A stretch of DNA of 64,000 nt from Escherichia phage teqsoen. The first letter of the stretch is position 1. Each line of letters opens with the position of its first letter. The notes beneath the pieces are model-generated. The model ran no database searches, was not told where the DNA came from, and worked only from the letters and a program-made list of their open reading frames with translations. The stretch is taken from the sequence record MN895436.1, one strand, 5' to 3'. Of this stretch, positions 1,537 through 56,059 are shown piece by piece. A program made the position numbers and the translations under genes.

Positions 1537-1737
1537 ATGGTACAAAAATTAATGGCACTTGTTAATGCCATAAAAGGTAATAAAAAACGTATAGCTTTTA
1601 CTATTTCTGCTATGGTAGGAATTTTACTCTGGAACTTTATTTTATCACCAATTGCAATTGCGCATGGTGTTAATATTCCAGTAGTTACTCTTGATACATT
1701 CGTAGATCTAGCATTTGCTTTAGTTGGGTTAATTTAA
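1537..1737 (+). CDS. small hydrophobic protein
   Basis: 66 aa, two hydrophobic segments, AAGGAGG 6 nt upstream of ATG; plus strand inside a minus-strand early region. Confidence 0.45.
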   Translation: MVQKLMALVNAIKGNKKRIAFTISAMVGILLWNFILSPIAIAHGVNIPVVTLDTFVDLAFALVGLI

Positions 1738-2762
1738 ATCTTGGCATATTTAGATAGCCGCATTTTAGCCATCAACCCCTGGGCAATATTATTTTTCATA
1801 TATTCCATAATTTGTTCAGGGGTTGCACCTTCCTTTCTAATCATATCATTGACATCTTTTGATTTCCAGGGAGATTTATCCCAAAACATAACCCTTTCTC
1901 CTGCATCAACTAATTTAGTCATTCGTTTGATAGTGTCAGGGTGACGAGGTTCATTATCTAAAACCCACACTCGTCTATCTTTAAATGGAACAACTTCTAG
2001 GTCTAATTGACCACCCGTAATAGCTATACCATTTTCAATAAAAAGTGAATCTATAGGTCCTTCTAGAACATATACATCACCATCTTTAACTCGTTCGACT
2101 CCATATATTTTTGTTGCCTCAGGATAAGCTTTAATGGTGATATACTTTTGTGGAGCATCTTTCTTTAATGCGCGTCCTTGAAAAGACTCAGCCTTTCCGT
2201 TAGCATTATAAATTGGAATAACAAGACGAGGCTCAGGTATTTCCTTTTTATATGTTCCCGGTACTATGCTATTAACTAATTTAGGCCATTCGGTTGTAAA
2301 CCAAAGATATTTCCATTTATCCTTTGGAATACAACGAGCTTTTACATATTTTATAATTGGATGGTCTTCCACCAGTTTATCTAATCTAACACATGACGGA
2401 AGAGATTTAATTATTTTCTTCTCAGGATGTTTGGGAAGTTCTTTAGGTTTTTCTACTGGACGACTTTTACCTTTTTCTTTTCTTATTTCAAAGATATACT
2501 CACGATATAAATCAGGTTCAAACTCCTTTAAATATATTCCGATTGGTGCATGATAGTTACAGTTATAACAATGAATATTTCCTTCATTATTATCACCATA
2601 ATACCATCCACGAGCTTTATTCTGGTCGGTTTTTGAATCTCCGCAAACAGGGCATCTAAACCGTAATTTAAAAGTTGAACTATTATTTACTTGTGTGAAT
2701 TTAGGTAAATGAGCTAATGCACGATACGCAAACTCATTATCAATCCAAGGTACTGATGACAT
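1734..2762 (-). CDS. 61: DNA primase (gene 61)
   Basis: 342 aa; Zn-ribbon CPVCGDS...CYNC; N-terminus matches T4 gp61. Confidence 0.93.
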   Translation of the reverse strand: MSSVPWIDNEFAYRALAHLPKFTQVNNSSTFKLRFRCPVCGDSKTDQNKARGWYYGDNNEGNIHCYNCNYHAPIGIYLKEFEPDLYREYIFEIRKEKGKSRPVEKPKELPKHPEKKIIKSLPSCVRLDKLVEDHPIIKYVKARCIPKDKWKYLWFTTEWPKLVNSIVPGTYKKEIPEPRLVIPIYNANGKAESFQGRALKKDAPQKYITIKAYPEATKIYGVERVKDGDVYVLEGPIDSLFIENGIAITGGQLDLEVVPFKDRRVWVLDNEPRHPDTIKRMTKLVDAGERVMFWDKSPWKSKDVNDMIRKEGATPEQIMEYMKNNIAQGLMAKMRLSKYAKI

Positions 2763-2928
2763 TTTTACTCTTCTTTTTCTTTAGATTCCTCTTTTTCTTT
2801 TTAGGAATCTGTTCAGGACCTTTATTTACTACAGCGCCCGACGTTGTTCCAGTAGAGATATTTTCAGGATTACCACCTGAATCTCCAGCTACCATATCTT
2901 CTTTAATAAATTCTTTATATGTTTTCAT
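2740..2928 (-). CDS. small basic protein with capsid-targeting-like N-terminus
   Basis: 62 aa; MKTYKEFIKE then Gly/Thr-rich segment and Lys-rich tail; ATG 4 nt after upstream stop. Confidence 0.5.
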   Translation of the reverse strand: MKTYKEFIKEDMVAGDSGGNPENISTGTTSGAVVNKGPEQIPKKKKRNLKKKKSKNVISTLD

Positions 2929-2974
2929 ATTAACCTCTATTCATAAAAGCATTAAAAATTTGGTCATCAATCGA
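2926..2974. repeat. 49-bp direct repeat copy 1 (gene 3' end + RBS + ATG)
   Basis: 47/49 identical to 3284-3332. Confidence 0.8.
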
Positions 2975-3286
2975 TGGAATAGCAACTTTTTCTGCATCAT
3001 TTAGCAAATCATTAATTTCATCGGATAGCATAACACATGTACCTTTATTTCCTGTAATTGTTACTGCGCAATTACGAACGTTTTCTTTATCAAATTTTAG
3101 GTTAATATTTTCGTAGTGAAAATCCTTTAATGCCGAATATATCTTTAAAATGAAATTGTCTTTTACTACAATAAACCCAACCTCACTATTAAAACGTGGT
3201 TCATGGAAACTGTAATAAACCTTTTCATCTATAAAATCGTATGAAATTTTTTCCATTTTTAAATATGAAAATTCAGAACTATACAT
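2930..3286 (-). CDS. hypothetical protein (61.1 position)
   Basis: 118 aa; C-terminus SIDDQIFNAFMNRG shared with upstream ORF. Confidence 0.6.
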   Translation of the reverse strand: MYSSEFSYLKMEKISYDFIDEKVYYSFHEPRFNSEVGFIVVKDNFILKIYSALKDFHYENINLKFDKENVRNCAVTITGNKGTCVMLSDEINDLLNDAEKVAIPSIDDQIFNAFMNRG

Positions 3287-3332
3287 ATTAACCTTTATTC
3301 ATAAAAGCATTAAAAATTTGGTCATCAATAGA
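3284..3332. repeat. 49-bp direct repeat copy 2
   Basis: 47/49 identical to 2926-2974. Confidence 0.8.
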
Positions 3333-3914
3333 AACATTTACTTTAGACTGTTTTTCTGATGGTAATTCATATCCACATATTACAATTTTGTGATCAATAT
3401 CAAAATACACAGAAGCAATATGATTAATGATGTTTTCAGTAAAGTCTAAATCAACATCAATATCTTTTTGACCACAGCCCAAAGGATAAATAATGCGAGT
3501 AATTCGATTATCTTTAACAAATATTCCACCGACATACTCTGTGCTGCGTTTAAAGTCTACATGCCGACGAAATGAAAAATATTCAGGCTCTCTATGAGCT
3601 CGGCTCATAGGACACAACGAGTAACTAGAATAAGAGATGTCAAATCCTACGCCTTCAATATGAGCCAAAGTGTCATGATTAAACCAATTATAATCGTACG
3701 CCAAATCCATTAGATTATAATATGTAAAAGGCACCGGATTAACATCATTAGTCACAAGCATGTAATTAGCAACTGCTATAATTTCATTGTTTTTAACGAA
3801 TACAAACCGTGATTGATGTGAATGACCTGGACCCACGTTTTCACGATTAATGATATAACACTGGGCACCTTTATATTTGTATGTATCTTTGCATTTGTGC
3901 ATTTGATAGAGCAT
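3288..3914 (-). CDS. hypothetical protein (61.2 position)
   Basis: 208 aa; C-terminus SIDDQIFNAFMNKG; stop/start coupled with sp. Confidence 0.6.
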   Translation of the reverse strand: MLYQMHKCKDTYKYKGAQCYIINRENVGPGHSHQSRFVFVKNNEIIAVANYMLVTNDVNPVPFTYYNLMDLAYDYNWFNHDTLAHIEGVGFDISYSSYSLCPMSRAHREPEYFSFRRHVDFKRSTEYVGGIFVKDNRITRIIYPLGCGQKDIDVDLDFTENIINHIASVYFDIDHKIVICGYELPSEKQSKVNVSIDDQIFNAFMNKG

Positions 3915-4207
3915 TATTCACCTACCACTTCAGCGATGATATTTTTGTTATTAAAGTTTTTATCGCAATACAGAACATAATTATACTGCATTACACCACC
4001 AGACTTAAGCTGTTTTTGCACTTCAGCTTTCATTTCAGGGCGATCGCGCTCAACGATATTCATAATATCTGCTTCAATTTGAGTTTCAACCTCAGTCTGA
4101 TCCGCAGTCATAGACCATTCGCACAAATCTTTATCATAACCTGCCATAGCAGGCTGAGCAGCACAAGAAGCTAAAGCAAAAATTGTGGCAAAGATAAATT
4201 TTTTCAT
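3914..4207 (-). CDS. sp: Spackle periplasmic protein (superinfection exclusion, inhibitor of gp5 lysozyme)
   Basis: 97 aa with signal peptide MKKFIFATIFALASCAAQPAMA; T4 Sp-like. Confidence 0.85.
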   Translation of the reverse strand: MKKFIFATIFALASCAAQPAMAGYDKDLCEWSMTADQTEVETQIEADIMNIVERDRPEMKAEVQKQLKSGGVMQYNYVLYCDKNFNNKNIIAEVVGE

Positions 4208-9373: not shown

Positions 9374-9526
9374 TTAAACCTCAATTGATACATTCATATT
9401 TAACTTGTAACAGTAATAAACCCCAACCTAAAATAATAGTTGGAATCATAAGAGGAACCGTTACACTATAGTATATACTTATTATAATCATCAAGATTAA
9501 AAGCAATGCTGATATAATTTTGCTTT

Positions 9527-10413: not shown

Positions 10414-10450
10414 TTTATTCTCCAAATCCGTATCAGTAGTTGATAGTTGT

Positions 10451-16255: not shown

Positions 16256-16310
16256 GTAATTTCCTTCAATTCAAATGAGATTTAATTTTATAACTAATTT
16301 AATAAAGCAA

Positions 16311-16700
16311 TTAACGATTAAAATCAGCCGCAATTGTTTCCGCAACAATTTGAGCAGCAACAATTAGACGTTCATCTGCATTACCACAATAATCATCTTC
16401 AAGGCGTTCACCACATGAAGTCATAATAAATTTAGCACCGGCGTTTAGGGATTCTGTAGTATGTTTGCGCATTAGTTCAATCCATTTATTACTTACTTCA
16501 CGATCGATAGCTTCATAATACGCATGACGAGCAGGTGCAGATTTAATTTTGTTCTGAATAACTTCCATTGCGTTATCAGAAAGAGACAAAACCCATGCTC
16601 GACGAATTTTATTTTGGTTTTGTGGATTTGATTCAGAACGCACGTGTTTTGGCTGAATATCTTTTACGTCAACAGTATAATTCACAGTAATTTTAGTCAT
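16311..16700 (-). CDS. rpbA: RNA polymerase binding protein RpbA-like
   Basis: 129-aa ORF immediately after gene 45, T4 RpbA length. Confidence 0.7.
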
Positions 16701-19083: not shown

Positions 19084-20099
19084 TGTGTTGCCTCTACATA
19101 TAACTGATTTGCATATTGAATAAGTGCTTCACGGTCAGAATCAGTGATGTCTGGAATTGCATTAATGTATTCTTCCATCAACGTCTGAAGAGATTGAACT
19201 TCAACTTCTTCACTGTCATCTGACTCGACAGAGTTATCAATCTTTGACACAACTCGTAATGAATGCACAACTTTTTCTAGTTCAGATTCGAACTTCGTCA
19301 GATTTTTGTCTACTTCAGTTACTATAACACGTACTGATAGATTTGTAAAATCTTTATAGTCAATTTTTCCTTTAAATGGATAATGAATTCTACGATGCCA
19401 GGTAGTATTGTTTGGAATAAATTCCATTCGTTCTGTTTCTGTATCAAACATCCAGAACCCACGAGGGTCATTCTCGTCACCTGCAGTTAGTGTCCATGGT
19501 GTCCCAATATATCTGACGTTAGCAGCCTCAGAGATAGTATGGAAGTGACCAGACCACACTTCCTTATAAGTCTTAAGGAAATCAGGTTCAAGACCGTGAG
19601 ATTTCATTCCTTTATAAAAATAAAATCCGTTCAGTTCCCAGTGACCAACGCAAAAAGAAGCAGATGAAGTTTTGATGTGTTCAAGAATTTCACCAGTATT
19701 TTCTTCACACATCCAAGGAATTAAATCAATTAAACATCCGTCAAAATCTACTGTAGTAGGCTTATCATATACTTTAACATTAGGATATTTAGCCAAAAGC
19801 TCAGTAGAGGCATTTGGAGTTAAAGTATTTTTAAAGTGCATATCATGGTTTCCTACAACAGTATGTAGGGTAATACCAGCATCATCAAGCATTTGAACTA
19901 TTTCACGAGCAAACTCCATAGTTTTATGCGTGATTGCTTTTCGCACATCAAAAATATCGCCGTATTGAATCCAGGTAGTAATTCCATTTTTCTTAGAATA
20001 TTCTATTGCTTGTTTAATTCCATCCAACTGAATGGATTGAACCCACTCATCATCGGCTTTAACACCTAAATGCCAATCACCTAAATTTAAAATTTTCAT
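19080..20099 (-). CDS. 47: recombination nuclease subunit (gene 47, Mre11/SbcD-like)
   Basis: 339 aa; metallophosphatase motifs DWHLG, GNHD. Confidence 0.94.
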   Translation of the reverse strand: MKILNLGDWHLGVKADDEWVQSIQLDGIKQAIEYSKKNGITTWIQYGDIFDVRKAITHKTMEFAREIVQMLDDAGITLHTVVGNHDMHFKNTLTPNASTELLAKYPNVKVYDKPTTVDFDGCLIDLIPWMCEENTGEILEHIKTSSASFCVGHWELNGFYFYKGMKSHGLEPDFLKTYKEVWSGHFHTISEAANVRYIGTPWTLTAGDENDPRGFWMFDTETERMEFIPNNTTWHRRIHYPFKGKIDYKDFTNLSVRVIVTEVDKNLTKFESELEKVVHSLRVVSKIDNSVESDDSEEVEVQSLQTLMEEYINAIPDITDSDREALIQYANQLYVEATQ

Positions 20100-34845: not shown

Positions 34846-35373
34846 TTATGCGAGTACCGTCTTTAACCGTTCTTCAAACTTCCGAAGAGTATTCTGGCGT
34901 TCAGCTCTTTGCTTTTTATAAGTTTCAATACGCTCTGAAATGAGAGTGTATCGTTCATTTACTGATTCTTTCATAAAATCAGGAATTTCACGAGAAGCTT
35001 TAATCTCATCAAATTTATCAATAACAGCTTGCTCTTCGGCAATTAAGTTATCATACATCAAAATATCTTTCTTGATGAACTCAATATCTTCTTGAGTTAC
35101 ACGAGATAATTTAGATGCTTTATCCTTTTTGTACTGTTCATTAGTATCACGAGACCAGTGTAATGTACGATTTTTATTCGTATTCTTGTAAATTTCTACA
35201 ATACCAATCTCATCAATAATAACGATCCAATTCCAACGGGATTTGTAAATCTGCCCTCCATCAACCGTGATTTCACCTTCGATTGAGATGTCATTAAAGA
35301 ACTTGCTTTGTGCTTCAGATTTAAATTTACCATCGTTATAATTTACCAGGTTGAAAATATCTTTAGCGTTCAT
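34846..35373 (-). CDS. hypothetical protein with C-terminal coiled coil
   Basis: 175 aa; GGAGGAACAG RBS. Confidence 0.6.
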   Translation of the reverse strand: MNAKDIFNLVNYNDGKFKSEAQSKFFNDISIEGEITVDGGQIYKSRWNWIVIIDEIGIVEIYKNTNKNRTLHWSRDTNEQYKKDKASKLSRVTQEDIEFIKKDILMYDNLIAEEQAVIDKFDEIKASREIPDFMKESVNERYTLISERIETYKKQRAERQNTLRKFEERLKTVLA

Positions 35374-54775: not shown

Positions 54776-54872
54776 ATTATTAACAAAGGCTCTCAAACAA
54801 GAACCCTTGATGATAGAGGGTATTAATCAGTGCGGTATGAGTTAATAATAACAAATAATTCTTAAAGCATAT

Positions 54873-56025: not shown

Positions 56026-56059
56026 TTTGATTTCCATTTGGTTTTGTTTTGATAGAGTA

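Follow-up and report, generated by a model that had tools for sequence, protein, structure and literature searches.

A 49-nt direct repeat in the "anti-toxin island" of a T4-like phage: a conserved protein tail, the P61 promoter sequence and a start codon at the edge of a putative gene cassette

The locus and the 49-nt repeat

The window analyzed here, 64,000 nucleotides of Escherichia phage teqsoen (MN895436.1), comes from a Tequatrovirus (T4-like phage), and the region considered is 96–98% identical to many other Tequatrovirus phages. The minus-strand gene order is primase 61, 61.1, an ORF of 118 aa, 61.2, spackle (sp), 61.4/tifA, dmd, helicase 41, 40 and uvsX. In T4, this part of the genome has been described as the "anti-toxin island", whose genes dmd, tifA and adfA act against RnlA, ToxN and DarT, respectively (PMC9391042). 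The genes and repeat copies are as follows.

3914–4207, minus strand: sp (spackle), the upstream edge of the variable slot; Pfam T4_Spackle, E 1e-44
3288–3914, minus strand: adfA (gene 61.2), 208 aa; Pfam PF23813, 97% identical to the T4-type cluster P0006
3284–3332, minus strand: repeat copy B, holding the final 14 codons of adfA (…SIDDQIFNAFMNKG), the stop, the SD AAGGT and the ATG of the 118-aa ORF
2930–3286, minus strand: 118-aa ORF, RB32ORF033c, phrog_4122 (E 7e-73)
2926–2974, minus strand: repeat copy A, holding the final 14 codons of the 118-aa ORF (…SIDDQIFNAFMNRG), the stop, the SD GAGGT and the ATG of 61.1
2740–2928, minus strand: gene 61.1, 62 aa (54 aa in T4), leader of the P61 transcripts into gene 61
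1734–2762, minus strand: gene 61, DNA primase, fed by P61

A repeat search of the window found 2926–2974 and 3284–3332 to be direct repeats of 49 nt, identical at 47/49 positions (96%) and spaced by 358 nt. Read on the minus strand, the unit is TC[G/T] ATT GAT GAC CAA ATT TTT AAT GCT TTT ATG AAT A[G/A]A GGT TAA T ATG, that is, the 14 final codons of one gene and its stop, then a single base and the start codon of the following ORF. The sequence-only reading had reported the repeat at 47/49, a C-terminal peptide common to the 118-aa and 208-aa ORFs, and one initiation region common to two different downstream genes. The search confirmed the repeat, and the minus-strand reading of both copies bears out the other two points, the downstream genes being the 118-aa ORF and 61.1.

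In all ten of the both-gene genomes compared, the two copies within a genome are identical at 46–48 of the 49 positions, and identity falls to background straight outside the 49 nt on either side. The sequence GGTTAATATG has only two sites in the 64-kb window, namely the two repeat copies. This sharp confinement, with no third site in the window, rules out chance as the origin of the repeat, and an assembly artefact is ruled out by the recurrence of the two-copy layout in 156 phage records. The RNA of the repeat folds no better than its shuffles (z-scores −0.63 and +1.58), and a scan of either copy gave neither a sigma-70 −35/−10 site nor an intrinsic terminator.

Three further observations concern the surroundings. 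The A-run of 61.1 (about 2790; AAAAAG-AAAAAG) is 1 nt shorter than in T4, T2 and wV7, and the resulting shift of frame gives a 62-aa product overlapping the start of gene 61, against the usual 54 aa; either a genuine frameshift or a sequencing error in the homopolymer could explain the shorter run. At least five small minus-strand ORFs, at 2928, 47683, 48017, ~56025 and 56359, begin with MKT[YF][KQ]EF[IA] in similar DNA, so that these starts form a common 5′ module of accessory genes, the mirror of the common 3′ module provided by the repeat. Families of direct repeats of 40–76 nt are found at 10427, 24730, 35378, 36817, 40832 and 52855, at 56047/56377, and at 4202 and elsewhere. They resemble T4 early promoters (GTTTACA … TATAGTA-type elements, minus strand) and may be the T-even counterpart of the PeSL-type cassettes discussed below.

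The middle promoter sequence inside the repeat

A T4 middle promoter combines a −10 element TAtaaT with a MotA box, (a/t)(a/t)(a/t)TGCTTtA, that lies 12 ± 1 bp upstream of it. One of the mapped promoters of this class is P61, which depends on MotA/AsiA and has its start at 19122, given in Table 1 of Hinton 2010 (PMC2988021), which cites Marshall, Sharma & Hinton 1999. On the minus strand of T4, 19122 is the A that stands 7 nt after TAATAT (19134–19129), and the MotA box occupies 19155–19147. The window is identical to T4 across the MotA box, the spacer length and the −10. The repeat unit thus holds the sequence of T4 P61 (start 19122, MotA box, TAATAT), a promoter that the earlier reading of this DNA had overlooked. 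Two copies are present.

2927–2953, minus strand: P61, orthologue of T4 P61; MotA box AATGCTTTT at 2953–2945, 12-bp spacer, −10 TAATAT at 2932–2927
3285–3311, minus strand: P61′, the second copy of the P61 sequence, in the 3′ end of adfA; MotA box at 3311–3303, −10 at 3290–3285

Comparison of P61′ with P61 revealed that both elements and their spacing are identical, the spacer of P61′ having A in place of G as the sole change nearby. Neither of the two mismatches between the repeat copies falls within the MotA box or the −10. In either copy the MotA box TAATGCTTTT agrees with the consensus at 9/10 positions, the last base being T and not A. From the reading frame it is evident how the promoter is built of coding elements: the MotA box is made of the Asn-Ala-Phe codons AAT GCT TTT, and the −10 TAATAT is assembled from the stop codon (TAA), the single T behind it and the first two bases of the following start codon.

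By orthology to T4, the downstream copy is identified as P61. Its start is predicted at about 2920, and P61 transcripts start inside codon 3 of 61.1 and continue into the primase gene 61. The start of P61′ is predicted at about 3278–3280, in the first codons of the 118-aa ORF, and we infer that this upstream copy may fire as a promoter too. The pattern WWTGCTTYW-N12-TANNNT has six matches in the window against 0.8 expected. The four that lie outside the repeat are at 9481–9507, 16285–16311 and 54845–54871 on the minus strand and at 34908–34934 on the plus strand; each probably has its orthologue among the other T4 middle promoters listed. In RB3-type phages both of the tail-bearing genes are missing and therefore the MotA box of P61 as well, so that only the −10-like TAATAT is left after sp; the site is at 1731–1744 in RB3 (L003) and at 2088–2101 in T2 (L002).

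AdfA, the 118-aa protein and their common tail

The 208-aa ORF matches PF23813 with 446 bits (E 1.7e-134), its residues 1–208 covering profile positions 1–211, and is thus AdfA (gp61.2), the anti-DarT factor A of LeRoux et al. 2022. Neutralization of DarT1 through binding has been described for the R164H allele of RB69 and for T4 AdfA alleles. At the column that holds R164 in RB69, our alignment shows His for the window protein and R for the RB69-like P0020. The ORF is accordingly annotated, from sequence, as full-length AdfA with the His allele, DarT1 neutralization being known from the alleles of other phages.

AdfA is mosaic. Its N-terminal types, MLYQMHKCK… in T4 (208 aa) and MIYYMHKNPPF… in RB69 and wV7 (210–216 aa), look unrelated and converge to a common sequence at DVNPVPFTYYN; the window has the T4-type N-terminus together with the two-gene arrangement. 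The two halves of AdfA are weakly alike (hhalign P 2.6e-4, with a shared VKxNxI hairpin), which suggests that the protein may be a doubled single-domain unit arising by internal duplication. Another protein, P0026, is very long (1379 aa) and matches the family profile at its hairpin region in three stretches (E 3.5e-6), perhaps because it consists of repeats that contain a β-hairpin motif of like kind.

The 118-aa ORF is a real gene, since its orthologues are under purifying selection (dN/dS 0–0.45). It scores 34.1 bits against PF23813 (cut-off 27), with residues 22–118 on profile positions 113–211, and PF23813 is also among the precomputed Pfam domains of its homologues. By BLASTP it aligns with AdfA residues 109–208 at 34% identity (E 4e-8), and the RB18 record annotates it with "some similarity to gp61.2". 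This score is largely due to the tail: after removal of the last 14 residues, the 118-aa protein has zero Pfam matches. Using hhalign on the tail-less protein, residues 20–79 were placed on AdfA 108–168 with 31–32% identity over 59 columns and P about 0.002, at a probability of only 10–15%, and this alignment with the C-terminal half of AdfA stays in register with the tail. The joint alignment of the two is colinear, with a VKDNxI hairpin common to both; the bodies are only about 25–30% identical. A search with the joint profile against 1.84 billion proteins returned one small family only, which includes divergent single-domain members of 119–125 aa.

The AlphaFold models of the two proteins are of low confidence (pLDDT 60 and 70); both have a run of β-strands followed by helices, with the tail as the terminal helix. 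Foldseek against viral models placed other tail-bearing proteins among the top few matches at TM of only 0.3–0.4; its score includes sequence and is therefore not independent evidence. No solved structure related to AdfA was found. Taken together, we consider with moderate confidence that the 118-aa protein and AdfA are diverged relatives, the former corresponding, as a single domain, to the C-terminal half of the latter. Compared with AdfA, it matches the C-terminal half of the profile and carries the same tail; it differs in having one domain, and Cys where AdfA has the specificity His. A recent paper described T2 as having no adfA homologue; T2 carries a single-domain relative of the 118-aa type at the same locus.

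The tail in the window reads S-I-D-D-Q-I-F-N-A-F-M-N-[RK]-G. Every family member found ends in DDQIFNAFM(N/K)R(G/D), including a Dhakavirus protein of 145 aa and metagenomic proteins of 119, 120 and 125 aa. Divergent lineages have 4–6 synonymous changes in the tail (GAC, CAG, GCC, TTC, AAC and a TGA stop) and no replacements in DDQIFNAFM, from which it follows that the peptide itself is under selection. The tail, a predicted helix, is the most conserved motif and the hallmark of the AdfA-type family.

A tandem pair is also found in a Dhakavirus-like contig (L029, 1075–1873), where a gene of 145 aa (…DDQIFNAFMKRD) is followed by one of 119 aa (…DDQIFNAFMKRG) with the tail, SD and ATG repeated. 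This pair arose independently of that in the window. Right after the tail, SD and ATG, Escherichia phage C6 (L004) has an unannotated ORF of 73 aa (MFVLTQFSKAVY…RPTKRQLRKLKKAH…) at about 2283–2504 on the minus strand. The same ORF occurs in L007, L008, L012, L014, L015 and L029, and it resembles TifA/gp61.4 (DUF7279 motif).

Gene gain and loss at the repeat

Global alignment of T4 with positions 2700–4000 of the window gave 95.7% identity and one clean gap of 358 nt inside the repeat; in T4, 61.1 comes right after adfA and the unit is present once. The sequence-only reading had considered the repeat a possible recombination footprint and had proposed a comparison with T-even genomes. The suggestion was reasonable, as T4 equals the window minus exactly one 358-nt period. 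Four arrangements of the slot were found.

Both genes (window, wV7, RB18): 156 records
adfA only (T4): about 170–227 records (approximate)
118-aa gene only (T2): about 141 records
Neither gene (RB3): about 26 records (approximate)

The counts come from junction queries on about 500 related records; the search joins nearby pieces, and the T4-type and "neither" figures are approximate, with T2-type at about 141. T2 and RB3 were compared by their junction sequences. In both, the gene after sp is preceded by TTAGAGGYTARTATG, the final 14 nt of the repeat unit, and therefore every boundary in the slot uses the same linker. In all four states of presence and absence the junctions fall at the shared tail or at the linker TAGAGGYTARTATG. 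From these comparisons of sequence, the repeat appears to delimit a cassette that is gained or lost within the "anti-toxin island", and we infer that homologous recombination made the 358-nt indel. T4 readily recombines at short homologies (Srikant 2022, PMC9391042). In T4-type phages, promoter-bearing repeats (PeSLs) flanking ORFs mediate excision and insertion, including as mini-circles (Arbiol 2010).

The near identity of the two copies has to be explained beside bodies so much diverged, and a recent gene conversion, homogenizing the two tails within this genome, would account for 47/49 identity in such a setting. The differences between the copies are stable, however. AAA upstream and AGA downstream recur in 9/10 both-gene genomes, and wV7-type pairs have two further synonymous differences, GAC GAT vs GAT GAC. 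Exchange or gene conversion between the copies is therefore not frequent, the copies evolve separately, and recent conversion is highly improbable. The same fixed differences in many genomes are in keeping with plain old paralogy, according to which adfA and the 118-aa gene are ancient tandem duplicates whose tail is held by purifying selection and codon bias, the repeat having no role in rearrangement and the indels being incidental. With the peptide fixed, codon usage gives a probability of 0.0016 that all 12 shared codons are identical; strong codon bias on an identical peptide makes the codon identity less surprising than it appears, and much of it is predicted from the peptide. Paralogy also agrees with the retention of the tail at the protein level in distant relatives, and with a synonymous variation that is no lower in the tail than elsewhere. 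Among orthologues such a reduction was not seen, the ratios being 4/11 vs 47/110 and 3/13 vs 19/67 in a small sample, so that an extra nucleotide-level constraint from the promoter, which together with that of the SD spans the 3′ 27 nt of the unit, is not measurable in a sample of this size. Nevertheless, 0.0016 is a low figure to be reached by codon usage alone, T4 lacks exactly one period without any scar, and the four states share junctions at the tail or TAGAGGYTARTATG in a pattern unlike random deletion. Paralogy without any part for the repeat in rearrangement is hence judged unlikely.

A different proposal came from the sequence-only reading, namely a portable module of C-terminus and initiation region. 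Stated fully, a mobile C-terminal peptide (an interaction tag or a degron) with its initiation region would have been fused onto unrelated proteins. One part of it stands: across phages the junction of tail, SD and ATG precedes four different genes, 61.1, the 118-aa gene, a TifA-like ORF and a 65-aa ORF. The absence of a Pfam AdfA match for the tail-less 118-aa protein, and a Dhakavirus 145-aa protein whose body outside the tail does not detectably resemble either AdfA or the 118-aa protein (hhalign P 0.14 and 0.51), may also be cited for it. The fusion onto unrelated proteins is not favored, as the 118-aa protein is probably a relative of AdfA and all family members found sit directly downstream of sp. 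A single slot of this kind argues against a tag hopping onto unrelated proteins. The bodies are, moreover, colinear and in register with the tail, intermediate single-domain members came from the profile search, and the order of secondary structure is similar in both low-confidence models. We regard the mobile tag as very unlikely.

The reading which we consider probable is that the repeat is the 3′-end module of two tandem family genes, combining the peptide, the SD and ATG, and P61, and that its two copies provide the recombination homology for a 118-aa cassette. Established here are the way in which the junction is built, the identification of its promoter from the T4 orthologue, the indel of one period by which phages differ and, with moderate confidence, the kinship of the two genes. 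The 49 nt have three jobs: to encode the invariant C-terminal peptide of the family, DDQIFNAFM[NK]RG; to supply, by the Arg/Lys-Gly codons, the stop and the T, the SD and the placement of the next ATG; and to form, with MotA box and −10, the mapped T4 promoter P61, which starts a few bases into the next ORF and feeds gene 61. The module occurs twice, 358 nt apart, because two family members adjoin, and the two direct copies would offer phage recombination the homology needed to take out or put in the 118-aa cassette. The 358-nt period is self-contained in that the ORF's own 3′ end gives the SD for its own ATG and carries a P61 sequence whose start falls just within the ORF; a crossover between the copies would remove the period, or the reverse reaction add it, with all neighbors left intact. 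The nucleotide identity is then best explained by selection acting at once on peptide, promoter and start site, with the repeat serving as an occasional substrate of recombination.

A bolder extension would make the unit of tail, P61, SD and ATG a general docking junction for exchangeable anti-toxin cassettes downstream of spackle. A 358-bp circle would be excised, or the period amplified in tandem, and be re-inserted by phage homologous recombination into any tail-bearing genome; the 118–125-aa members would be inhibitors that differ in their targets, DarT-like toxins or others, with the invariant helix as a common element of binding or assembly. Such a system, which may be likened to an integron without an integrase, is speculative and seems to us quite unlikely in this general form.

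The closest known relatives of the arrangement are found in T4 itself. Copy A is the direct orthologue of T4 P61, with the same AATGCTTTT, 12-bp spacer and −10 TAATAT; the window phage differs by a second copy 358 nt upstream in the 3′ end of adfA. In the literature searched, no description was found of P61 as built from the C-terminal, stop and start codons of its flanking genes, or of the repeat as a cassette seam. With the PeSLs there is a common plan: one accessory ORF lies between direct repeats that carry a promoter, the ORF and one repeat are exactly what distinguishes related phages, and the logic of excision, mini-circle and re-insertion is the same. The repeat of the window, in contrast, has a MotA-dependent middle promoter and not a sigma-70 early promoter, is without stem-loop or terminator, and overlaps coding sequence for a conserved peptide, whereas PeSLs are intergenic. 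In behavior it resembles a PeSL, yet it lacks two of the features that define those cassettes, the sigma-70 early promoter and the stem-loop. The T4 "Anti-TA island" study (PMC9391042) concerns the same locus and a change of copy number by short-homology recombination; it dealt with laboratory amplification at 2–10-bp microhomologies, while here a functional module of 49 nt accompanies natural gain and loss of a whole gene.

All of the components were already known, and the anatomy of the junction is new, if modestly so. Within 49 bases, three layers of information are packed: a conserved protein tail, the mapped middle promoter of the primase gene and a translation start. The packed junction is a seam for the gain and loss of counter-defence genes among T-even phages. 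The half-size AdfA relative of the T2 type is an obvious candidate inhibitor of other toxins, and two P61 promoters in tandem are predicted wherever a phage has both genes. Current understanding is not overturned by these results; they refine the map of the T4 "anti-toxin island".
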